Shown here: positions 29,020 through 51,975 of the stretch, piece by piece
Position numbering within the stretch: position 1 is the first letter of the stretch
How the letters are laid out: each line of letters opens with the position of its first letter
Source: an uncultured Gemmatimonadaceae bacterium
Lineage (GTDB): Bacteria; Gemmatimonadota; Gemmatimonadetes; Gemmatimonadales; Gemmatimonadaceae
Reading direction: 5' to 3'
Assembly (NCBI GenBank): GCA_963790305.1
Contig: CAWBOC010000009.1
Location: forward strand, 384,001-448,000
Length of the DNA stretch: 64,000 bases
Made by a program: the position numbers and the translations under genes
Notes under the pieces: model-generated
What the model was told of the DNA's origin: nothing
What the model saw: only the letters and a program-made list of their open reading frames with translations
Databases searched by the model: none

Positions 29020-29047
29020 AATGTATTGAAGTTGCGAGCGGTGTCAA
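29020..29047 (-). promoter_or_regulatory. Sigma70-like promoter for fusA-tuf-S10
   Basis: TTGACA-16 nt-TACATT on the minus strand. Confidence 0.6.
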
Positions 29048-29074
29048 CGGGACGAGTCACCGTTGATTCAGCGC

Positions 29075-30238
29075 TCACACGCGCACGAATGCGCGTGCGA
29101 AGCCCACCGATTCCGCCAGCCGGCGAGCGGCTGAGCGCGGGGCTGTCAGTCCGTCAGTCAGCCAGATCGACATCTCGGGATTCTGCCAGGGCCGAGCGTT
29201 TCCGTGGCCACTCCAGCGGGGGCGGAGCGCGGCCGACCAGATGAGCTCGCCAAGCCTTACCGAGGGACACGCCCGCCCTTCAGCGATCTGCCATGTGAAA
29301 TAGCGCTCGAGGCGATCGAGCACGAAGCCCGGCGTCGGGGGCTCCATCGCCCGAAGCGCCGCCGCCGGGACGTCGACCCCGGCCAGGCGATGCGCGAGGC
29401 GGAGCGTCCAATAGACACACGTGGTCGCCCGGGCCGCTCGTGCCCGGCTCTCGCAGAGGGCCCAGTCCACTCCGCCTCGCTCCGTCAGCGCGGCGACGTC
29501 GCGCAACGCGCGCCACGCTCCGCCGTTCATCATGTGAGACCACACCCAGTGCCCGCACAGATACACGAGATGGTCTTCAACTGAAGGGATGAGGATCCCT
29601 CGTCGGGCCCCGCGCACCGCGGTGCCGCGACTGGCCACCGCCTCGGCGTCGAGCACAAACGGATGCCTCGCGGGAAACAGACCGGTGTGAAGCTCGAGCA
29701 GGGCCCGCGTGCCGCGGGCGTCCCGCAGCGGCGGCAGGTGGTGGTGGGTCGAGAAGAATGGCGCGTATCGCACGTCGTGCTTCCACACCCAGCCTGATGA
29801 CGCCGCCGCGACGCGTGCAGCGTCGGTCTCCGCAGCGGGCACGAGGACATCGAGATCCAGCATCGGCCGGTCGACGATGGATTCGTAAACACTCCGCGCG
29901 AGGGCCGCACCCTTGAGCAAGACCGTGCGAATACCGGCCGCCTCGAACGCGGCAATGGTCTCGTCGAGACGCTCGTCCATGCGCTGCAGCTCGAACTCCT
30001 CGACCATCGCCAGGCGTCCCATGTCGCCCGCTGCCGATGGCAGGCGTCCGCCTAACGCGTCACGGACGCGGCGCGCCACAACGGGAACGGCGCGCGCTGC
30101 GACAGCCATACGCGTCACAAGACCCCACCGGACTGCACCGACGGCAATCCGGGCTATCTCGGCGTCGTTGCTGCGCGGACCGGCGCAGAGAAACACCAGC
30201 CGTGCTTCAGCGCCGATCGACGGCTCACGCATCAGCAT
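29075..30238 (-). CDS. Nucleotidyltransferase-family protein (NTP_transf_5-like), lasso cluster tailoring enzyme
   Basis: LLKGAALA..RPMLDLDVLV (DxD), LELH; last gene of the lasso operon. Confidence 0.8.
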   Translation of the reverse strand: MLMREPSIGAEARLVFLCAGPRSNDAEIARIAVGAVRWGLVTRMAVAARAVPVVARRVRDALGGRLPSAAGDMGRLAMVEEFELQRMDERLDETIAAFEAAGIRTVLLKGAALARSVYESIVDRPMLDLDVLVPAAETDAARVAAASSGWVWKHDVRYAPFFSTHHHLPPLRDARGTRALLELHTGLFPARHPFVLDAEAVASRGTAVRGARRGILIPSVEDHLVYLCGHWVWSHMMNGGAWRALRDVAALTERGGVDWALCESRARAARATTCVYWTLRLAHRLAGVDVPAAALRAMEPPTPGFVLDRLERYFTWQIAEGRACPSVRLGELIWSAALRPRWSGHGNARPWQNPEMSIWLTDGLTAPRSAARRLAESVGFARAFVRV

Positions 30239-30239
30239 G

Positions 30240-31040
30240 TCAGTAGTGCGCCAGGGTCCCGGCACGCCGGGCGTATCGCATGCCAATCACGAATGCTCCC
30301 GTTCCAATGGCCAACAGCACGACGGCCATCGCCGCGAGGGTCAGCACGTCCGGAAGCACTTCGCGGAAGGCGACGCCATCGAGCCACACCCGCCGAAGAG
30401 CACGCAACCCATAAGTCAGAGGGATGACCCCGGATAGCGACTGAATCCACGAGGGGATGACCGAGGTCGGATAGTAGACGCCTCCGAGCAGACCGGAGAG
30501 AAGCAACACGGCCTGCGGCAAGGGTCCCGTCGTCCGAAACGCGAGCACCATCGCCGCCGCCATCAAGCCAATGGCGAAGTACGCCGCGGTGATCAGCGCC
30601 AGAATCAGGAGCGCGAAGCCGCTATGACCCGCGCTCAGCCGAACGCCAAGGATCACGGCCATCACAATGGTGAGCGCGCCCCGCACCGCCGTCCAAGTGA
30701 ACGCGTATCCAACGAGCCCGGCGATCAACAATGCGAGGCGCGCGCGCGTGGAGAGCATTGCCTCGAGCGTGCCGGTCGCGATTCCCGACGCGACTGCTCC
30801 GGATACGGCGTTCACCGCCGTCGAGAGAAACGAGAACGCCAGCACCCCCACGACGAGAAAGCCAAAGTAATGTCCGCCTTCGTTGCTGATCCGCTCGGCA
30901 ATCACTGGCTGAAGCGCACCGGCGACGAAGTACATCGGGAGGATCGTGACGATCAGGCCACCAATCGACATCAGCATGCCGAGACGATAGCTCGTCGCGG
31001 TAAGCCAGCTGGCGCGCATGAGCGCGAGGGCTTCACGCAT
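30240..31040 (-). CDS. ABC-2-type transporter permease
   Basis: About 6 TM segments, GTLEAML, GGVYYP..IPSW..IPLTYG. Confidence 0.88.
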   Translation of the reverse strand: MREALALMRASWLTATSYRLGMLMSIGGLIVTILPMYFVAGALQPVIAERISNEGGHYFGFLVVGVLAFSFLSTAVNAVSGAVASGIATGTLEAMLSTRARLALLIAGLVGYAFTWTAVRGALTIVMAVILGVRLSAGHSGFALLILALITAAYFAIGLMAAAMVLAFRTTGPLPQAVLLLSGLLGGVYYPTSVIPSWIQSLSGVIPLTYGLRALRRVWLDGVAFREVLPDVLTLAAMAVVLLAIGTGAFVIGMRYARRAGTLAHY

Positions 31041-32091
31041 CCGAACCCTCCTTGCGACGCGCGACGATGCGGTCGAGAAGCTCGGCCAGCGTGAGTGGCG
31101 CGCGCTCGAAGCGCGCGACCCGTACACCCGCGCACGTCAACAGATCGAGCACGCGTGCGGCATCATCGAGGCCGCCTGGAACGTCAACGTCAATGCGGGT
31201 CCATCCGTCTTCCTGCACGCCACCGCTGACGTGCGCGATCACGCCCCGCTCACCGAGGGCGTGCCAGGCGGGGTGCTGAGCGTCTCGCGTCCACGCCCGG
31301 TACCGGGCATCCCCGACTTCGCGCGCGAGCTGCTCAACCGGCCCGGTCGCGAGCAGGCGACCGCGGTCCAGCACCGCCACCCGATCGCAAAGGCCGAACG
31401 CCTCCTCCGCACTGTGCGTCGCGAGCAGAACCGTGCATCCCTGACGTCCGACGAGCTCGTCGCGCAGAAAGACGCGCAACGCACGCGCCGAAATCGGGTC
31501 GAGACTTCGCGTGGGCTCATCGAGCAGAAGAACGCGCGGGCGCGCGAGCAAGGCGCGCGCAATGAGCAGCCGCTGCTTCATCCCTGACGAAAACGTGCCC
31601 ACCAGCTGAGTCGTCGTGGCATCCAATCCCACCAGACCGAGGAGCTCGCGCACCCGGACTGCGACCTCGGCACGAGGAACGCCGTGCAGCGCGGAGAACA
31701 GCCGGAGGTTCTCCGTCGCGGTCAAGCGCCAGTGGAGCGACCGCTCGTCGGCGATGACCGGCGCCAGCACACGCCGCGTGGTGGCCGGGCTGCGCACGAC
31801 GTCATGTCCGAGGACAGTCGCTCGCCCGGTATCCGGCAGGATGAGCGTCGACAGCACCTTGAAGAGCGTGGTCTTCCCAGCGCCGTTCGGCCCGAGCAGC
31901 CCGACGAACTCTCCTTCGTTGACCTCGAGATCGACGTTCGCGAGGGCGAGCCGGGTTTCGCGCGTCAGCGGAGCGCGCATCGCGACGCTCAACGGGCGGC
32001 GAACCGCGAATCGCTTGCTCAACCCGACGATCGAGATCGCACTCGCCGTCCGCGTGGCGCAGAGAACCGTGGGCGCGGCCACCAGGGTCAT
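31033..32091 (-). CDS. ABC transporter ATP-binding protein (exporter)
   Basis: GPNGAGKT, FSSGMKQR, LLLDEP, ATH; ATGA overlap with the kinase. Confidence 0.92.
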   Translation of the reverse strand: MTLVAAPTVLCATRTASAISIVGLSKRFAVRRPLSVAMRAPLTRETRLALANVDLEVNEGEFVGLLGPNGAGKTTLFKVLSTLILPDTGRATVLGHDVVRSPATTRRVLAPVIADERSLHWRLTATENLRLFSALHGVPRAEVAVRVRELLGLVGLDATTTQLVGTFSSGMKQRLLIARALLARPRVLLLDEPTRSLDPISARALRVFLRDELVGRQGCTVLLATHSAEEAFGLCDRVAVLDRGRLLATGPVEQLAREVGDARYRAWTRDAQHPAWHALGERGVIAHVSGGVQEDGWTRIDVDVPGGLDDAARVLDLLTCAGVRVARFERAPLTLAELLDRIVARRKEGSDA

Positions 32092-33035
32092 ACCGAGCCC
32101 GCTCCTACGCCGTCGGCATGCCACGCGAGCACATCGGCGACGACCTCATCCAGTCGCGTGAAATCACGAGAGACCTCGAGCAGTCGCACCGGGACGCGCC
32201 GCGCCAGCGCGACGACTCGGTCGAGCAGCGCCACCGCTTCGCAACCGGTGAGAAGAGGTGCGATCTTCGCGTGGCGAACGAGCGAGAGCGCCGAGGGCAC
32301 CGGTGGCAAGGCGCTTACGCGAGCCGCTGCGCCGCCGGGAAGCGCGGTCACCGGTGACAGCAAGTACAGCGCGGCGATCGGCACCGCCTCAGCCTGGAGC
32401 CGGTCGATCTCGAGCGCGTCAACGACCATCCGGTCGCCCGACGGGCGCGCCTCACGAGGGGCGGGCGGCAGCCGCGTCGCCGCATCGGAGCGAAGCCGAA
32501 GCTCGTGGACGCCCGGGAATGCGAGAGGCCCGCCGTCGAGCTGAACGCGGAGCGTGTCGTCGGTGAGAAGTCGCGCGCCGGCTCGCACGAGGGCCCACGC
32601 GAGCGTGGATTTTCCGAAGCCCTTCGAGCCGAGAAACGCGATCGCCTCGCGTTCGATCGCGACGGCACTGGCGTGAAAGCAGACGTCGCCAGCAGCGTGC
32701 ATTGCCGTCGCGAGGACTCGGCCCATGATGTCGACGCGCGCGGCGTCTTCGGACACGGTCGCCGGGGCGCGCCAGATGATGGCGCCGCCCGAGGCATCGA
32801 TGTCGAAGCGCCCCGTGTCGTCATACATGAGATGCCAACCGCGACTCGATCGATAGAGACGCGCACTGGCGCTCGCGTCGACCTGGTCGCTGCCGAGCGC
32901 CTCGGCATCCCGGGGCATGGGCTCCGGTGCGTGGCGGTGCAGCGTCCAGGTGGGGCGTGCGGCCGTCAGCGCCCGCAGCGATGGACACTCGAGCGCGGTG
33001 CGGAGCACCCCTCCGAAAATCGCGTAGTCGGTCAC
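32088..33035 (-). CDS. HPr-kinase-like lasso peptide kinase (start uncertain, 33035-33080)
   Basis: FHASAV, GSKGFGKST Walker A, LLTDD; directly after the precursors. Confidence 0.8.
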   Translation of the reverse strand: MTDYAIFGGVLRTALECPSLRALTAARPTWTLHRHAPEPMPRDAEALGSDQVDASASARLYRSSRGWHLMYDDTGRFDIDASGGAIIWRAPATVSEDAARVDIMGRVLATAMHAAGDVCFHASAVAIEREAIAFLGSKGFGKSTLAWALVRAGARLLTDDTLRVQLDGGPLAFPGVHELRLRSDAATRLPPAPREARPSGDRMVVDALEIDRLQAEAVPIAALYLLSPVTALPGGAAARVSALPPVPSALSLVRHAKIAPLLTGCEAVALLDRVVALARRVPVRLLEVSRDFTRLDEVVADVLAWHADGVGAGSV

Positions 33036-33045
33036 TGCGGCTGGT

Positions 33046-33080
33046 GTGGCTGGGAGGTCGACCAGACCCTCCCGAGCCAC
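33046..33080 (-). other. Stem-loop immediately 3' of precursor A2
   Basis: gtggct-gggagg ... cctccc-g-agccac. Confidence 0.6.
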
Positions 33081-33087
33081 GGGAGCA

Positions 33088-33255
33088 TTACGAGCGTGAT
33101 CCGCAGGAACCACTGGAAGGGTACCAGTTGTTCCCATCGGACGTTACGCCGGTATCCGTGCTCGTGACGGTGAAGCCATCACAAGACCCGGTCACCCCGG
33201 CCTGGGTCAGCTCCCGGAACGTCCCGAAGCGCTGAACCTTGGGTTTCTCGTACAC
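33088..33255 (-). CDS. Lasso peptide precursor A2 (55 aa from GTG; alternative ATG at 33270)
   Basis: Leader YEKPKVQRFGTFRELTQ (YxxP, GxxxxxT, Thr at -2); core AGVTGSCD...CGSRS. Confidence 0.88.
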   Translation of the reverse strand: MYEKPKVQRFGTFRELTQAGVTGSCDGFTVTSTDTGVTSDGNNWYPSSGSCGSRS

Positions 33256-33327
33256 AGCATCTCCCTGCATAAAAGGTGAGCCTCCTTCCTACGGGAACGA
33301 CACACACACCTGCACGAGCCTAACGAA

Positions 33328-33360
33328 CTGAGACAGCGAGCCCTGTCCTCACTGTCCCAG
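33328..33360 (-). other. 13-bp stem-loop 3' of precursor A1
   Basis: Minus strand CTGGGACAGTGAG/CTCGCTGTCTCAG pairs fully only with two G-U wobbles. Confidence 0.65.
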
Positions 33361-33366
33361 GGACCA

Positions 33367-33543
33367 CTACGAACGCCCGCTGTTGATGTCACCATCCCAC
33401 GGGCATTCAGGGCGATTCGGCGCCCCACAGATGTTGTCGCCGCCAATTCCGAAGACGACGAGACCATCGTTGTCGCGGTCCCAGCCCGCCCGGGTGAGCT
33501 CGCGGAACGTACCGAAGCGTTCCACCCTGGGCTTTTCGTACAT
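33367..33543 (-). CDS. Lasso peptide precursor A1 (58 aa; hidden in the tail of a spurious 391-aa ORF)
   Basis: AAGGAGG SD; MYEKPRVERFGTFRELTR|AGWDRDNDG...SGRS; leader nearly identical to A2. Confidence 0.9.
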   Translation of the reverse strand: MYEKPRVERFGTFRELTRAGWDRDNDGLVVFGIGGDNICGAPNRPECPWDGDINSGRS

Positions 33544-33632
33544 GAGCCCTCCTTGATGCACGGTCGCCGGGTTCGCCCCCCGGCCGGGAGCGGGCCACAC
33601 CGGCCCGCGTGTCCGATCGTCGAAATCGACTG

Positions 33633-35586
33633 TCACGAAAGAGCACCGGCGAATGCCTGCGAGGCGCGCATCGGGCCGCCGTTCGGCGATCCCCGCGACG
33701 CGTCGTGCGCCCGCGTCCAGAACTCCGTCTGCAGCGTGAGAAAGAGCGTCACGCCAAGGTTGCCGTCGCCGCTCGCCTTCCACTCCTCCCAACCGCGACG
33801 CAGCGCCGCCGGGTCGATGATCCCAAGCTCCGCGAGCCGGCTGTCGCGCACCGCCCTGTCGACGAGACCGGCGCCCGCGTCGCGGAATGCCCGGCTGAAC
33901 AGCCGGCCGGTCGTTCCAGTCCGAGTGCGGCGGGGAGCGAGGACGTCGTCGGGTATGATGCCCCGCATCGCCGCTCGAAGGACCCGCTTCGTTTCCCGCT
34001 GTGACGCGCGCTCCTCCCGCGGACGCTCGGCCGCGAACGCGATCACGCGAGGATCCATCAGCGGTGATCGCACTTCGACCCCTTCCTCGCGCGCGAGGGC
34101 GCTCACGCACGCGTAGACGCGCGGGAAATACGGCGCGGTCATGTAATACCGGCTCTCGACGGCCGCGAAGCTCTCGCCCCGCCGCCGACGTGGCGTGGTC
34201 CGGGCACGCTCCGCAAAAGCATTCCGGCGCGCGAACTCGGGGTTGATCCAGGCGGGAACGTCGCGCTCGAGATATGCGCGGAGTGCGCGGCCGCGTCGAA
34301 GGGTCGCCGCCGCGTTGAGCGCGAACGCGGGCAGCAGCGGCTGAATCGCCCAGCGGAACAGTGTGCGCGCATCGCGAACACCACGCGCGCGGCATTCCTG
34401 TGCCGCCGCGAAGAGCCGACCGCTGCGCACCAGATCGGCGAGGTAGACCAGCGAGACCTGGAAGAGCTGATCGCCACCATTGCCATGCAGTGCGACGTGG
34501 GAATCCACGGCGCGACTTCCTCTGGCGAGAGCACGGTTCCAATGCTCGAACACATGGGCAAAGGGCTCATCCCGGCTGGCCGCGCCCTCGCAGAGTTGAT
34601 CGAGCAAGGAGATCTCTGCACTGTCGATCCAGTGCGGCGTCGCCCCCCAACGCCCCGCGACGGATGTGATGAGCTCATCTTCGCGCCCCGGATCACCCAC
34701 CGGGTACGTGATCGAGACTGCGCGAACCCGATCGACGTCGCCGCGCGTGGCCGACATGGCGGCGCCGAAGACCGCCGGTGAATCCCACCCGCCGCTGAGC
34801 CACACACTCGTTGCGCCGCGCGGCGTCGAGCCGTTCCTGAACGGCGCGCGCGAGGAGGTCGCGCAGCGCCACTGCGCCATCCTCGAGGGTCAGCCGGCGG
34901 CCGCTCTCGAACGTCGGCGCTTCCCAGTGCCGGGCCAGCACCGGGCGTGCGTCACCGATGCAGGAGAGCGTATGGGCGGCGGGAATTCGTTCGATCGATG
35001 CCAGGCAGGTGCTCGTCTCGTCGAGGGCGAGTCCCGCAGCCACTTCGCCAAGGTGAGGGAGATTGAGGGCAGGCTCCGCGCCAGCGGCGACGAGCCCGGA
35101 AACCCCCGAGGCCAACAACAGGCCATCGCGCGTCTCGGTGTAGAAAAGCGGCCGCGTGGCGCCGAGGTCGCGCGCCGCGACCATCCGCCGCGCAACGGAG
35201 TCCCAGATGATGAACGCGAAGTCGCCCTCGAGACGACGGCCGCACTGATCGCCCCACGCGCGATACGCCGCAAGAATCACGTGCGCGGTGGTCGGCCCCG
35301 ACGGACGCGCGTCCCTCTGTCGCAGCGCACGAAGGAGATCGGTTCGATAGTACAATGCGGCATCGGCGACGACGACGATCCCGGCTTCGCTCGCGATCGC
35401 CAGCGTGCTCTCACGGCCAGGCATCGCCTCCCACGTGTCGGATGCGATCGCAAGCGTGGCGTCGCCACACGACACGACCCGCGAGAGCTCGGCGCCGCGC
35501 CGCGCCATCGCGCTGAGTGCACGACTGGCGAGCTCCTCGCAATGCGTGCTGCGAGCGCGGGTGATGACGGCGACGATGGCGCTCAT
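33633..35586 (-). CDS. Lasso cyclase (asparagine synthetase-like C protein); frameshift near 34825
   Basis: N-part LEGDFAFIIWD..AARDLG.RPLFY; C-part WLSGGWDS, GNGGDQLF, VRSPLMD; ATGA coupling to B2. Confidence 0.87.
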
Positions 35587-36035
35587 CGAGCTCCCACGAG
35601 GCGCACGTCGGCGAGAGGCTCGAATGAGGCAACATGCTCTGAGGAATCGGCGAGCACCTCCGCCCCGAGCTCGACCCATGCGTGCGCCTCGAATCGACCG
35701 GTTCGCTCCCGCACACCAATGCGAACGTGCCACCCGGGCACCTGCGCGCGCTCCAGCATCCGCGACAGCGCCAGCGAGCGAACGAGACAGTTGGGACGAA
35801 ACACGCCGCGGCGCGAGACGAGCGACACGGCGTTGGCCAGTTTTCGCGCCGTCACGCGTGCGAGCTCGTCAGGCGCGGCCGATGCCTCACGCTCCCGTCG
35901 CACGAGGCGACCCTGGGGACGGGTCCACACCGCGAGCTGCGCTCGCAGCAAGGCGAGCTGCGCGCGCAGGAGCTCGCGGCGCTCGGCCTCGCTAAGCGAG
36001 ACGAGTTTCGACAGTCGCGACGCGAGGCGGCGCAT
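35583..36035 (-). CDS. Lasso leader peptidase B2 (transglutaminase-like)
   Basis: NCLVRSLAL and IGV..FEAHAWVE catalytic Cys/His motifs. Confidence 0.9.
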   Translation of the reverse strand: MRRLASRLSKLVSLSEAERRELLRAQLALLRAQLAVWTRPQGRLVRREREASAAPDELARVTARKLANAVSLVSRRGVFRPNCLVRSLALSRMLERAQVPGWHVRIGVRERTGRFEAHAWVELGAEVLADSSEHVASFEPLADVRLVGAR

Positions 36036-36315
36036 GCCGGGCGGGCTCCGGAGCGGGGACGAGCAGACCGAACGATTGCAGCGAGCTCAGCAGCTCGATG
36101 ACATCGGCGCGGAGATCAGCCGGCGAAACCTCGGGGTGCCGTGCCGCGAGCGCGGCGCAGAGCGAGTCGAATGACATGTGCGCGGGAGGCAACATCTCCC
36201 AGACTTCCGCCGCAACGGCGTTGAGGCCGAAATACACCTCGTCCGTGAGCGAGAAGAGGACGGCGCCTTCCGACAACGTCCGATAGATGACTGCCTGGTT
36301 CCGAGTGGGCAGCAT
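35992..36315 (-). CDS. Lasso B1 / PqqD-family RiPP recognition element
   Basis: GAVLF..YFGLNAVAAEVWEML..DVIELLSSLQSFGLL. Confidence 0.88.
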   Translation of the reverse strand: MLPTRNQAVIYRTLSEGAVLFSLTDEVYFGLNAVAAEVWEMLPPAHMSFDSLCAALAARHPEVSPADLRADVIELLSSLQSFGLLVPAPEPARHAPPRVATVETRLA

Positions 36316-36640
36316 GCAGCAGCTCTCGTCGACACGATTGCTCGTGCCGTGGCCATTGGGCTCGCAGACGCGAGACAGGGATCGCGTTACGACATGTCCC
36401 GGTTAGCATCCGGGGCTGCAAGCAATGGCAGAGGCGATGCCATCCTCAAGGGATGGTCCCGGGACGTGCCCTCGTGGGCAACGTATTACGCCACAACGGC
36501 TTCCGATCTGAGGGCTCGAATGTGGATAACGTTCGCCGTGCGCGCGTTCCGCATCGTTTGTTGCGGTACTGCGACAGGTGGGCCGTTCCGCAAATGCGAA
36601 ATGATTTTTGCACGTCACCCTCATTAGCGTGCCCTAACGA

Positions 36641-36671
36641 AATAAAACGGCGCCTCAGAGAGGCGCCGTTT
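36641..36671 (-). terminator. Rho-independent terminator after rpsG
   Basis: Minus strand AAACGGCGCCTC-TCT-GAGGCGCCGTTT followed by TATTT. Confidence 0.8.
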
Positions 36672-36694
36672 CATAACGATTCGCTCGAAAGGGC

Positions 36695-37703: not shown

Positions 37704-40700
37704 CTATAGCTCCTCGTCGATCACGTGCGTCGCCGTTCCGAAGCCAGCGTCCGATAAACCAGGGACTGGAAGCGGGGCGAAGGGCTCCAGCGGTGCTGCC
37801 GGCACGAAGCCCTCCGGCGGCTCCGGCGCCTGGAGATCGATGTCGATCTCCGAATACCGATACTGACCGGTACCCGCCGGGATGAGGTGGCCGATGATGA
37901 TGTTCTCCTTGAGCCCAAGGAGATCGTCCTTGGCCCCGCGGATCGCCGCATCGGTGAGCACGCGAGTGGTCTCCTGGAACGACGCCGCCGAAATGAACGA
38001 CTGCGTCGTGAGGCTCGCCTTGGTGATACCCAGGAGCAACGGCTCCGAGGTGCCGGGCTTGAGCCCCTTCTTCTGGGCGCGGTCGTTGATCTCGCGGAAC
38101 GAGCCCTTGTCCACATGCTCGGCCTCGAGGAACTCCGTCTCCCCGGGATCCATGATGCGCACCTTCTGAAGCATCTGCCTGACGATCACGCCAATGTGCT
38201 TGTCGTTGATCTTCACGCCCTGCAGGCGATACACCTCCTGCACCTCGTTCAGCAGATACTCCTGCACCGCACGGGGTCCCTTGATCCGCAAAATGTCGTG
38301 CGGATTCACGGGTCCCTCCGACAGGCGGTCACCGGCGCGCACGCGATCGCCCTCGTGCACGCGAAGGTGCTTGCCTGCCGGAACCTCGTACAGCTGCGCT
38401 TCCTGCGACTCGTCCGCGACCTGATAGCCATCTGGGCCGTCACGCGTCGGCTGGACGAAGACCTCGCGCTTGCCACGCTTGATCTCCCCGAACCGCACCG
38501 TGCCGTCGACTTCCGAGATCGTCGCCGGATCCTTCGGCCGGCGCGCCTCGAACAGTTCTGCGACGCGCGGCAGACCACCGGTGATGTCACGCGTCTTGTA
38601 CGCCTCGCGGCCGATCTTGGCGAGAATGGTTCCCGCCCCGATCTTCTCACCATCGTCCACCGTCAGCTGCGCGCCGACCGGGATGACGAAGTCACGCAGA
38701 CGCTTCTCCTTTCCACCCTTCTCCTGCACGATCTCGATGTGAGGGTGCAGCCGCTTCTCGCGATCTTCGATGATCACCCGCTGCCGCAGGCCGGTGAGCT
38801 CGTCGAGCTCCTCGGTCACCGACTCATCCTCGACGATATCGACGAAGCGGACCGTGCCTTCGACGTCGGCGATGATGGGATTCGTGTACGGATCCCAGGT
38901 GAAGATCACCGTGTCCTTCTTCACGTCCTCGCCATCGGCGACCATCAGGAGTGCACCCAGCGGTACCGCGAAGCGCGACGCCACCGGCGCGTTCTTCTCC
39001 GCTGAGCCACGGATGATGATCTCACCCTCGTACGACGTCACGATCCGCTGCCCGTCGGAATTCTCGACGTGCACCAGCCGCTCCCCGTACTCGACGACCC
39101 CTGCCACCTTCGACTTGCGCGCCGTTTGCTCGGCGATACGCGCCGCCGTTCCACCGATGTGGAAGGTTCGGAGCGTGAGCTGCGTCCCTGGCTCGCCGAT
39201 CGACTGCGCGGCGAGAATACCGACCGCCTCGCCGAGATCCACCATGAACATCGTGGCCAGGTTTCGCCCGTAGCACATTCTGGCAGAGCCCGCGCTTGGC
39301 CTCGCAGGTGAGCACCGAGCGGATCTTCACCGTCTCGAGCCCCGAGTCCTCGATCGCGCGCGCCGTTTCCTCATCGATGAGCAGTCCCGCCTCCACGAGC
39401 AGCTTGGGGCGACCCGACTCATCGCGCTCATGCGGATCCTCGACATCCTCGGCCGCCACGTTGCCGACGATACGCTCGGCGAGCGGCTCGATGATGTCTT
39501 CGCCTTCCTTCAGCGCGCCGACCTCCAGTCCGAGGATCGTGCCGCAATCCTCTTCGGTGATCGTCACGTCCTGCGCGACGTCGACGAGACGACGCGTGAG
39601 GTAGCCGGCATCCGCGGTCTTGAGTGCGGTGTCGGCCAGACCCTTACGAGCGCCGTGCGTCGAGATGAAGTACTCGAGCACCGAGAGTCCTTCCCGGAAA
39701 TTCGACTTGATCGGGCTCTCGATGATCTCGCCAATGCCGCCGGTGAGCTTCTTCTGCGGCTTCGCCATGAGACCGCGCATACCCGCCAGCTGACGGATCT
39801 GATCGCGGCTGCCGCGCGAGCCGGAATCGAACATCATGAACACCGGGTTGAGCCCGCTCTTCGACTTCGACATCGCCTTCACCATGGCGTCGGCAATGTC
39901 GTTGTTCGCGTGCGTCCAGGTGTCGATCACCTTGTTGTAGCGCTCGCCGTTCGTGATGTTGCCCGTCTGATACGCGCGCTGGAAGCGCTCGACGCGCGCC
40001 TCCGCCTCCTCGAGCAGCGTCTCCTTCTCGCCGGGAATCTCGAGGTCTTCAACGCCGATGGAGACACCACCCATCGTCGCGTAGCGGAACCCGAACTCCT
40101 TGAGGCGATCGAGGAACGCGACCGTTCCCGAGAGCCCCGAGCGCCGATAGGCCTCGAACACGAGCTCCGAGAGTGCCTTTTTCTTCATCTCGCGGTTCTG
40201 GAACGGCATGACGTCGGGGATGATGCTGTTGAACAGCACGCGTCCCGCCGTCGTACGCTCCCACCGCGCGGGGCCACCCGGTTCACGAACCAGAAACTGG
40301 ACTGGCGTGTGATAGGTGAGCCGGCCCACCGCGAGTGCCGCCTCGATCTCCGCGAGCTCCGTGTAGCGTGGCGCATCGGTGACCTTCGTCGGATCGACCG
40401 GAGCGCGCGTGAGGAAGTAGCAGCCGAGGACAATGTCCTGGCTGGGCTCCGCCACCGGACGTCCATCCGACGGCTTGAGGATGTTGTTCGACGACAGCAT
40501 CAGCAGGCGCGACTCGAGCTGCGCCTCGAACGACAGCGGCACGTGCACCGCCATCTGGTCGCCGTCGAAGTCCGCGTTGAACGCCGCGCAGACGAGCGGG
40601 TGGATGCGGATGGCCTTCCCCTCGACGAGCACAGGCTCGAACGCCTGGATGCCTAACCGGTGCAGCGTCGGCGCGCGATTCAACAGAACGGGATGATCCT

Positions 40701-42027
40701 TGATGATCTCTTCGAGGATCTCGTACACCTCCGGGCTCTCGCGCTCGACGATCTTCTTCGCGCGCTTGACCGTTTCGGCGATCCCCTTCTCCACCAGCTT
40801 GTGGATGATGAACGGCTTGAACAGCTCGAGCGCCATCGCCTTCGGAAGTCCGCACTGGTGCAGGCGGAGCTCCGGGCCCACGACGATGACCGAACGTCCC
40901 GAGTAGTCCACGCGCTTGCCGAGCAGGTTCTGACGGAACCGGCCCTGCTTGCCCTTGAGCATGTCGCTGAGCGACTTGAGCGGCCGCTTGCCGCGACCGC
41001 GAATCGCCTTGGAGCGACGGCCGTTGTCGAACAGCGCGTCGACGGCCTCCTGCAGCATGCGCTTCTCGTTCCGGAGAATGACTTCCGGCGCGCGATGCAT
41101 GATCAGCTTCTGCAGTCGGTTGTTGCGGTTGATGACACGGCGGTACAGGTCGTTCAGGTCCGACGTCGCGAAGCGGCCGCCATCGAGCGGCACGAGCGGA
41201 CGCAGGTCGGGCGGAATCACTGGAATGACGTCCAGGATCATCCACTCCGGCTTGTTGCGCGTGTCGCCCGACTCACCCGAGTTGCGGAACGCGTCGACGA
41301 TCTTGAGCCGCTTGAGCATCTGCTTCTTCCGATGCTGCGACGTCTCCGTCTGCACGTCCTCGCGGAGCTGGTCGGAGACCTTGTCCACGTCGAGGCGGCG
41401 AAGCAGCTCGCGCACCGCCGGCGCTCCAATGTCCGCCTTGAAGGCGTCGTCGTTCGCCTCACGCGCCTTGGCGCGGAGGTCGAGGTACTCGTCCTCGTCG
41501 AGCAGCTGCAGCGGACGCACTTCCTGCTCGCCCGGCTCGATGACGACGTAGTTCGAGTAGTAGATGACCTTCTCGAGATCACGGAGGGTGAGATCGAGGA
41601 GGTTGCCCATCGGGCTGGGCAGGGTCTTGAAGAACCAGATGTGCGCCACGGGCACCGCGAGCTCGATGTGACCCATGCGCTCGCGACGCACCTTGGACAG
41701 CGTCACCTCGACACCGCAGCGGTCGCAAATCACCCCGCGGTAGCGGATGCGCTTGTACTTCCCGCAATGGCACTCCCAGTCCTTGACCGGACCGAAGATG
41801 CGCTCGCAGAAGAGGCCGTCCTTTTCGGGCTTGAACGAGCGGTAGTTGATGGTCTCGGGCTTGGTGACCTCGCCCCACGACCACCAGTTCCGCCCGCCGC
41901 CCATTTCGATCCGCTCACGCTCCTTGGGATCCTTGGGACCACGGATCTCCTCGGGCGACGCAATGCGAATCTGGATGAAATCGAAGTTCGAGCTGCGCGG
42001 CTCGCGCGCGCTACGGAAGTCAATCAT
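37704..42027 (-). CDS. rpoC: RNA polymerase beta' subunit; frameshift near 39280
   Basis: NADFDGD, zinc-binding motifs, [10 protein letters not shown]. The two ORFs join as [13 protein letters not shown] after removing one base. Confidence 0.97.
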
Positions 42028-51476: not shown

Positions 51477-51549
51477 AGCTCGCGATCGGGATTGAACCAA
51501 TGACCTCACCCTTACCAAGGGTGTGCTCTACCAACTGAGCTACGCGAGC
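51477..51549 (-). tRNA. tRNA-Thr(GGT)
   Basis: Cloverleaf; acceptor GCTCGCG/CGCGAGC; loop CTGGTAA-type TT-GGT-AA. Confidence 0.95.
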
Positions 51550-51680
51550 GGCGCTACTGTCCGAGGCATTTGTTCACGCCGAAAGCCGCCGTGCCCGCGG
51601 CGGCCTCCGCGATCGATCATCGATCTCTTCCTGCGCGCGGCATCGACACCGCATCCCATCCTACCTAACGACGACACCCA

Positions 51681-51753
51681 AGCGGGAGACGGGGCTCGAA
51701 CCCGCGACATCAAGCTTGGAAGGCTTGCGCTCTACCAGCTGAGCTACTCCCGC
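51681..51753 (-). tRNA. tRNA-Gly(TCC)
   Basis: GCGGGAG acceptor, CT-TCC-AA loop, GTTCGAG. Confidence 0.95.
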
Positions 51754-51768
51754 GACACTGTGCGACAG

Positions 51769-51851
51769 TGGTGGGGGAAGGATTCGAACCTTCGAAGGCC
51801 GGAGCCGACAGATTTACAGTCTGTTCCCTTTGACCGCTTGGGTACCCCACC
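51769..51851 (-). tRNA. tRNA-Tyr(GTA)
   Basis: GGTGGGG acceptor, CT-GTA-AA loop, long variable arm. Confidence 0.95.
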
Positions 51852-51902
51852 GATCGGATCACGCCGACCGCCCCGCGTCGAGTACCCTGGCGACTCGCTC
51901 AG

Positions 51903-51975
51903 AGCTGACGGCGAGAATCGAACTCGCAACCTGCCGCTTACAAGGCGGCTGCTCTGCCATTTGAGCTACGTCAGC
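51903..51975 (-). tRNA. tRNA-Thr(TGT)
   Basis: GCTGACG acceptor, CT-TGT-AA loop. Confidence 0.95.

Follow-up and report, generated by a model that had tools for sequence, protein, structure and literature searches.

The window, that is, the whole stretch of 64,000 nucleotides that was analysed, carries on its minus strand what reads as a complete lasso peptide gene cluster around a small precursor gene, A2. Besides A2, this cluster comprises B1, B2, a cyclase, a further precursor gene (A1), a kinase, a two-part ABC exporter and an NTP_transf_5 gene. The genes are contiguous in the order B1, B2, C, A1, A2, K, ABC ATPase, ABC-2 permease and N. The source genome has 4.31 Mb in 13 contigs and is 94% complete, and relatives of the kinase with named hosts put the organism in Gemmatimonadaceae. 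The following features were located:

29056..36692: whole 7.6-kb insertion, absent from the rpsG-fusA junction of the same-genus genome G006
35992..36315, minus strand: B1, PqqD-like RRE (PF05402, 51.2 bits; lasso PqqD models below cut-off)
35583..36035, minus strand: B2 leader protease, transglutaminase-like (PF13471, E 3.8e-19; NF033537, 74.1 bits against a cut-off of 33)
33633..35586, minus strand: cyclase C, Asn-synthase-like, in two frames here with an extra A near 34811-34812
33367..33543, minus strand: A1 precursor gene, 18-residue leader and 40-residue core, AAGGAGG upstream
33328..33360, minus strand: RNA hairpin directly 3' of the A1 stop, by folding, with an 11-13 bp stem and a 7-nt loop
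33088..33255, minus strand: A2 precursor gene, GTG start, 55 codons and TAA stop, 18-residue leader and 37-residue core
33046..33080, minus strand: hairpin in the spacer from the A2 stop to the kinase start, by folding, with GGGAGG in its 5' arm
32088..33035, minus strand: HprK-like kinase K with P-loop, 315 aa from a conserved GTG/ATG start
31033..32091, minus strand: ABC exporter ATPase, DrrA-like, from domain and family models
30240..31127 (ORF limits), minus strand: ABC-2 type permease (PF01061)
29075..30286 (ORF limits), minus strand: N, NTP_transf_5 nucleotidyltransferase-fold protein (PF14907, E 1.6e-35)

The ATG of the cyclase gene overlaps the stop codon of B2 (ATGA) and the ATG of the ABC ATPase gene at 32091 overlaps the stop codon of K (ATGA). 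By analogy, this Gemmatimonadaceae cluster can be assigned to the paeninodin/pseudomycoidin type. The two name-giving systems from Firmicutes, paeninodin (PadeA/PadeK) and pseudomycoidin (PsmA/PsmK/PsmN), come with the same split B1/B2, cyclase and HprK-like kinase, and they have the same Ala-Gly core start, Asp as ring acceptor and terminal Ser as kinase target. The psm cluster also possesses a gene for a nucleotidyltransferase-fold protein, as N here, both K and N being likened to their counterparts by description. The present case differs from both known systems in its Gemmatimonadaceae host, in the two-gene ABC-2 exporter and in the location of the kinase gene downstream of the precursor genes, and whereas paeninodin and pseudomycoidin are class II peptides without Cys, the 37 residues of the A2 core include two conserved Cys. 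The masses given for pseudomycoidin in the available text of its report correspond to about 2.6 kDa (PMC6993621).

In G006, which belongs to the same genus, the rpsG-fusA junction is empty (L059) with a spacing of about 330 nt. The insertion in the window is flanked by a stem-loop with T-run after rpsG, which is read as a putative terminator, and by some 400 conserved nt that precede fusA. At the same junction, G001 (L060) has 1.8 kb of ORFs without Pfam matches and G012 (L061) has 6.5 kb of unrelated sequence encoding PAP2/VTT proteins, two alpha-amylases and an MFS transporter, and from these comparisons the junction appears as a variable site among relatives. Neither end of the 7.6-kb insertion showed an integrase gene or a tRNA, and neither rpsG nor fusA was found within up to 10 kb per side, where the contig allowed, of five other Gemmatimonadaceae kinase-type lasso clusters. 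A functional tie of the cluster to the str operon was considered and rejected because the junction is variable, rpsG is followed by the putative terminator and the five other clusters show no rpsG or fusA in the DNA compared, so that the position beside translation genes hints at no target. A promoter scan returned one site where 0.8 were expected by chance, the promoter-like TTGACA-16-TACATT at 29020..29047 on the minus strand, and this site falls just within the stretch before fusA that genomes without the cluster also have. Searching the window with Rfam models detected four tRNAs only and none at A2; these four genes stand in a row at 51477..51975 on the minus strand and presumably are the tRNA cluster that usually precedes secE-nusG/rplK.

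Read from the GTG at 33255, the A2 leader is V(M)YEKPKVQRFGTFRELTQ (translation of 33088..33270, minus strand), followed by the core AGVTGSCDGFTVTSTDTGVTSDGNNWYPSSGSCGSRS and the stop codon. Translation of the minus strand thus reproduces the 37-residue core with Cys7 and Cys33 of the preliminary description; the core begins with Ala1, has Asp8 next to Cys7, ends with Arg36-Ser37 and contains 14 Ser/Thr and 7 Gly. At the position of the start codon, relatives have GTG or ATG, and the motif GGGAG is located 5 nt before it in six of six genomes compared. An ATG at 33270 was rejected as start, as the genome G004 has no such upstream ATG and as GTG/ATG at 33255 is conserved. The NCBIfam model NF033521 (lasso_leader_L3, curated cut-off 19) gives 27.5 bits for A2 and 28.3 bits for A1, and in the A2 leader both the Y-x-x-P motif and Thr at -2 are present. 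Among 22 database candidates, 21 were relatives of A2 at E<=1 (best E 1e-28). When 1.84 billion cluster representatives (50% clustering) were searched by profile, 322 matched at E<=0.001, and leader and core were separable in 149 of the best 150. Judged from its sequence, A2 is a real and conserved second lasso precursor in a soil Gemmatimonadaceae bacterium. An AlphaFold2 model of the linear A2 precursor, based on an alignment of 20 sequences, displayed a mean pLDDT of 50.5, a pTM of 0.13 and zero secondary structure, and is uninformative on a β-hairpin loop, which the alternating Thr-Val-Thr pattern might suggest.

The core of A1 contains Asp8, Cys21, Cys29 and a terminal Ser. As described earlier, the leaders of A2 and A1 differ at 3 of 18 residues (positions 6, 8 and 18 only; 43 of 54 nucleotides are identical), and the cores have little in common beyond Ala1-Gly2, Asp8-Gly9 and the terminal Arg-Ser. 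It also still appears that the two disulfide topologies should differ, as A1 keeps two Cys in the tail (21 and 29) and A2 one in the ring (Cys7) and one in the tail (Cys33). The leader-model scores and the cluster content agree with the earlier proposal that A2 is a second lasso precursor using a common B1/B2/C set with A1. However, a B/C set serving more than one precursor is not something new, since according to the available text of the sources several precursors are served by one set in the cases of felipeptins A1/A2 and of caulosegnins I-III (the latter from a reference title in PMC8498205). The suggestion that one cyclase may make two disulfide classes stands only in part: the B/C set is common to A1 and A2, but the cyclase makes the isopeptide bond, not disulfides. 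The felipeptins come as two precursors from one cluster and both are class IV, whereas here two topologies are predicted; in the literature searched, supplements aside, no single cluster was found to be described as a source of class III together with class IV products.

Stem-loops of the attenuator or mRNA-stabilising kind are common after RiPP precursor genes. The hairpin following A1 is kept in six genomes, changed bases still pair at 5 of 11 pairs and the ACAGGG loop is conserved, and it is probably an intercistronic attenuator or an mRNA-stabilising element. In the hairpin between A2 and the kinase gene, one pair varies between U-A, C-G and U-G in the six genomes and most pairs are invariant. 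The fold z-scores obtained from the window sequence alone are weak for both hairpins (-1.78 and -1.27), and it is covariation, not the z-score, that supports the A1 hairpin.

K displays weak matches to Hpr_kinase_C and HprK_rel_A, and with all HprK models in Pfam and NCBIfam its scores fall far short of the curated cut-off. In an alignment to solved HPr kinases (E 0.003, next to the weak Pfam/NCBIfam scores), the His, GxGKS and Asp-Asp residues of K coincide with those of the structures, and they are invariant in seven orthologues. According to the available text of three reports, PadeK and PsmK transfer phosphate to the C-terminal Ser of their precursor peptides, the rest of the substrate sequence matters little to the paeninodin and pseudomycoidin kinases, which require their His-Lys-Asp-Asp motif, attachment of one or two hexoses to the phosphate depends on PsmN, a nucleotidyltransferase-fold protein described as uncharacterised, and a bulky C-terminal group may help to lock the thread, as the authors suggest (PMC8498205, PMC9266682, PMC6993621). 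That A1 and A2 invariably end with Ser agrees with the C-terminal Ser being the target of PadeK and PsmK. A terminal Ser is present in 104 of 149 family representatives (best 150 of 322), and Ser37 of A2 in all 20 aligned relatives. By analogy with these kinases, the last Ser of A2 is the expected kinase target and is probably phosphorylated. In the preliminary description, the Ser/Thr-rich tail had been offered as a source of extra modification sites, a view that is not borne out, as K and N are the only tailoring enzymes of the cluster and the C-terminal Ser is the sole site at which characterised relatives of the two act. A Brevibacillus locus (L054) obtained in the kinase scan was discarded because it encodes an oligopeptide ABC transporter that was matched via its P-loop only.

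The precursor profile has matches in 22 of 61 related genomes, a tally in which the source genome of the window is counted along with the unpublished G015, to which no specific claim is tied, and five of the eight other genomes of the same genus have matches, two each. The pair of A1 and A2 with the cluster occurs in five same-genus genomes, and a related cluster occurs in G021 from another genus; in the six loci fetched (from G002, G003, G004, G007, G008 and G021) the order of the cluster is the same. In G021, an A2-type precursor comes first and is followed by a second precursor with ring Cys, and the NTP_transf_5 gene is missing. In this second precursor of G021 (L041, 3057..3197), codon 4 of the core is an in-frame TGA, as opposed to Trp in the intact relative P0148, owing either to a nonsense mutation or to an error of sequencing. 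The A2 ORF is intact in seven genomes and in addition 12 distinct A2-type proteins derived from metagenomes were obtained. Codon differences in the A2 leader among five genomes are synonymous in 41 cases and non-synonymous in 15, and those in the core among genomes number 84 synonymous and 89 non-synonymous for A2, compared with 157 and 70 for A1. These numbers for the A2 core suggest that it diversifies around fixed positions. An alignment of homologous precursors, as had been proposed earlier, shows Asp8, Gly9, Arg36 and Ser37 to be invariant in 20 of 20 A2-like precursors, and the tail Cys to be present in 19 of 20; Gly2 is near-invariant, and position 1 is variable across the family.

Two deviating cases were noted among close relatives. 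The A2 orthologue of G004 (L036, 7847..8011) has Tyr replaced by Cys in the Y-x-x-P motif of its leader, and in its core Phe10Arg, Asp22Ser and Gly23Arg are found with both cysteines retained; this copy may be on its way out. In a soil-metagenome contig of 630 nt (depth 4.4), the kinase start region is joined to the region downstream of A1 (window 33079..33309), with 10 differences in 545 aligned bases, flanks that are about 98% identical and 45 other letters in place of A2, and this contig would represent a close strain with A1 but without A2. The soil contigs were assembled from four runs, and none of them reaches the extra A of the cyclase gene near 34811-34812. No RNA dataset was among the sequencing runs listed, and no run shared more than 0.19 of the sampled words.

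With exactly two Cys, one in the ring (7) and one in the tail (33), A2 has the sequence prerequisite of class III. As had been noted before, both a ring Cys7 and a tail Cys33 belong to A2, and both are kept in 19 of 20 distinct A2-type cores, a set made up of 17 cores, that of G004 and those of P0024 and P0025. The exception is P0025, in which the tail Cys is replaced by Val. An aberrant sequence, P0017, has its ring segment missing and a degenerate leader. Three cores on the A2 scaffold (Asp-Gly-Phe-Thr-Val-Thr...) have Ser/Thr at position 7 and show a new Cys24 together with the tail Cys, and this pairing of Cys7 loss with Cys24 gain indicates that a ring-tail arrangement was exchanged for a tail-tail one, and not that a Cys was simply lost. 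For the 149 cores from the best 150 of the 322 representatives, the number of Cys per core was compared with a Poisson expectation:

0 Cys: observed 23, expected 27
1 Cys: observed 7, expected 46
2 Cys: observed 109, expected 39
3 Cys: observed 10, expected 22

As the representatives are related to one another, this comparison is descriptive and no formal test, but the surplus of pairs is clear all the same. The excess of two-Cys cores and the exchange of Cys7 for Cys24 argue for disulfide pairs. In the same cores (best 150 of 322), both Cys lie in the tail in 86 of 149 and one in the ring and one in the tail in 21 of 149, the ring Cys of the latter being at position 3, 5, 6, 7 or 8. Long cores with two Cys are the rule in this family with NF033521-type leaders (best 150 of 322) and no peculiarity of A2. 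A2 is probably class III-like, Cys7-Cys33 tying ring to tail, and A1 would be class IV-like.

None of the cluster genes encodes a thiol oxidoreductase according to the domain search. The genome encodes three DsbA-like Thioredoxin_4 domains, one of which shares an open frame with a VKOR domain, and an oxidising system outside the cytoplasm would thus be available. Characterised class III and IV clusters are mostly without thiol oxidoreductase and disulfide formation is probably non-enzymatic, as stated in the available part of PMC9266682, which names two class III lasso peptides and adds that very little is known on their biosynthesis. In class III BI-32169 and 9401-LP1 the same arrangement of one ring Cys and one tail Cys is seen (available text of PMC9266682 and PMC13352647). 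A2 differs from these two in its predicted loop of more than 20 residues, in a tail Cys located four residues from the end and in that its disulfide is a predicted one; moreover, the 9401-LP1 cluster consists of A-D genes only in the accessible text of PMC9266682, whereas A2 comes with tailoring enzymes. Class IV LP2006, pandonodin and felipeptins A1/A2 have two tail Cys, as in the partner precursor A1. In the literature covered, supplements aside, no paper describing the 322-representative family was found, and for Gemmatimonadota lasso precursors no description was found beyond cluster counts, PMC11316326 being available in part.

We consider it somewhat probable, at slightly better than even chances, that A2 is a genuine second precursor in a paeninodin/pseudomycoidin-type cluster and is matured to a lasso peptide with a ring-tail disulfide. 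While the existence of the gene, its conservation and cluster context and the pattern of Cys pairing can be read directly from the compared sequences, all chemical steps of the following pathway are ones that we infer. The RRE B1 would bind the Y-x-x-P leader, which is near-unchanged between A2 and A1. Once the phosphate is on the precursor, the NTP_transf_5 enzyme may add hexose to it. B2 would then cleave after Gln(-1), guided by Thr(-2), the cyclase would link the amine of Ala1 to the side chain of Asp8 around the tail, and the ABC-2 transporter would export the peptide. Outside the cytoplasm, the Cys7-Cys33 disulfide of A2 would form and lead to a class III-like figure-of-eight, and in the case of A1 a tail-tail bridge Cys21-Cys29 would give a class IV-like peptide. 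If Cys33 lies at the ring of the matured A2, residues 9 to about 30 would form the loop and the small residues 28-35 would pass through the ring, Trp26/Tyr27 being placed on its upper side and Arg36 and the modified Ser37 on its lower side.

Several alternatives have to be weighed against this pathway, beginning with those in which no A2 product is made. The cluster might be dead in the source genome if the frameshift in its cyclase gene were real: relative to five relatives there is a +1 shift by one extra A near 34811-34812, and at the junction compared the gene forms a single uninterrupted frame in the five same-genus genomes. The gene rpoC is essential, and in the window it is split into two overlapping frames (ORFs 39022..42027 and 37704..39278, minus strand) by an extra A at 39278-39279. 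The site falls within the conserved Cys-x-x-Cys-Tyr-Gly-Arg segment and reads CCAGAATG here, as opposed to CCAGATG in two relatives. This defect, an A read as AA, is of the same kind; it is almost certainly an assembly indel and calibrates other frameshifts of the source genome, in which two other Asn-synthase-like genes are also fragmented, their pieces lying in different open frames. Considering rpoC and these split genes, the cyclase frameshift is read as probably an assembly error, and a dead cluster seems quite unlikely. We also regard as decidedly improbable that A2 is a dispensable, decaying paralogue of A1 without functional product and that A1 is the cluster's real product, although several observations point that way: the soil contig of the close strain is without A2, the share of non-synonymous differences is higher in the core of A2 than in that of A1, the G004 copy has Tyr2Cys in the RRE-recognition motif, the second precursor of G021 has a TGA in place of the Trp of P0148, and other Gemmatimonadaceae clusters with kinase hold tail-tail precursors only. 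The fast evolution of the A2 core also counts against the preferred pathway, as do the cyclase frameshift, the soil contig without A2, the changes in the G004 copy, the deviating P0025 and P0017 and the low model scores of the kinase. However, intact A2 ORFs persist in the seven genomes and the 12 metagenome-derived proteins, the start codon and Shine-Dalgarno motif are conserved, selection on the leader is purifying (41 synonymous and 15 non-synonymous differences), and the pattern of fixed Cys7, Asp8, Gly9, tail Cys, Arg36 and Ser37 with variation of the rest is that of a diversifying functional RiPP core.

Other alternatives accept that A2 is matured and concern the structure of the product. 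A lasso or branched-cyclic peptide without the Cys7-Cys33 bridge, its Cys being reduced, metal-bound or engaged in intermolecular bonds, is in our opinion unlikely. The loss of the tail Cys in P0025 and the family members with three Cys (10 of 149) or one (7 of 149; best 150 of 322) would agree with it, as would pseudomycoidin made without psmK and psmN, which in the available text of its report is said not to be a threaded lasso (PMC6993621). On the other hand, exactly two Cys are found in strong excess (109 of 149; best 150 of 322), Cys7 is exchanged for a new tail Cys in A2-like cores, the cluster has no enzyme for other thiol chemistry, and an exporter and a VKOR/DsbA-like system are present. 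In a further variant, cleavage would occur one residue later and the ring would be a 7-membered Gly2-Asp8 ring, for which speak the nearly invariant Gly2 and the mixture at position 1, where 149 cores (best 150 of 322) have Val in 39, Ala in 34, Leu in 27 and Ile in 17 cases. Against it, Thr is invariant two residues before Ala1, and Thr at -2 is the canonical position at a lasso cleavage site. Paeninodin and pseudomycoidin close their ring with the N-terminal Ala of their Ala-Gly start (available text of PMC6993621), and we consider a Gly2-Asp8 ring very unlikely. The Ala1-Asp8 ring predicted in the preliminary description fits with Thr at -2 and with Asp8-Gly9 being invariant in the 20 aligned relatives; Asp8 is also present in 136 of 149 family representatives (best 150 of 322).

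If A2 is matured with the Cys7-Cys33 bridge, its dimensions would be unusual. The cores of A2 (37 residues) and A1 (40 residues) both exceed the 33 residues of pandonodin, which the available text of PMC13352647 quotes as having the longest tail and as the largest characterised lasso peptide. Among the 148 cores considered from the best 150 of 322 family members, 95 are longer than 33 residues and the median length is 36. For Cys33 to reach Cys7, the ring would have to be placed around residues 30-35, small ones with the conserved Trp26 and Arg36 on either side, which would leave a loop of more than 20 residues. The largest loop quoted in the same available text is the 20-residue loop of achromonodin-1, a class II peptide of 30 residues in total that shares with A2 a very long loop, and A2 would exceed it in loop and length if Cys33 sits at the ring (PMC13352647). 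A loop of this size threaded through an 8-membered ring would surpass the achromonodin-1 record, which counts against the preferred pathway. It is possible, though we lean towards doubting it, that A2 with 37 residues is the largest lasso peptide yet, having a loop of more than 20 residues, a ring-tail disulfide and a phospho-hexose on Ser37 as second lock, and being made by one enzyme set together with the 40-residue, tail-bridged A1. If this were true, one cluster would give two disulfide topologies, and the family of 322 representatives would be an unexplored class of giant, disulfide-bridged and C-terminally tailored lasso peptides. With near-identical leaders, a ring-tail and a tail-tail precursor and an intact cyclase in relatives, these clusters offer a natural test system for how far one B1/B2/C set tolerates changes in core length and Cys placement, for whether disulfides arise spontaneously after export and for whether C-terminal phospho(glyco)sylation and disulfides jointly lock the thread.

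A different arrangement of ring Cys and tail Cys was noted in a distinct sub-family with the same type of leader, composed of P0051, P0056, P0079, P0084, P0086, P0131, P0149, P0160, P0166 and P0168. Its members have the ring Cys at position 3 and a tail Cys followed by Phe or Leu, and they end with Ser-Arg instead of Arg-Ser, a misfit to the Ser-kinase rule. This Cys3 sub-family is a second and larger set of lasso peptides predicted to be of the ring-tail kind.
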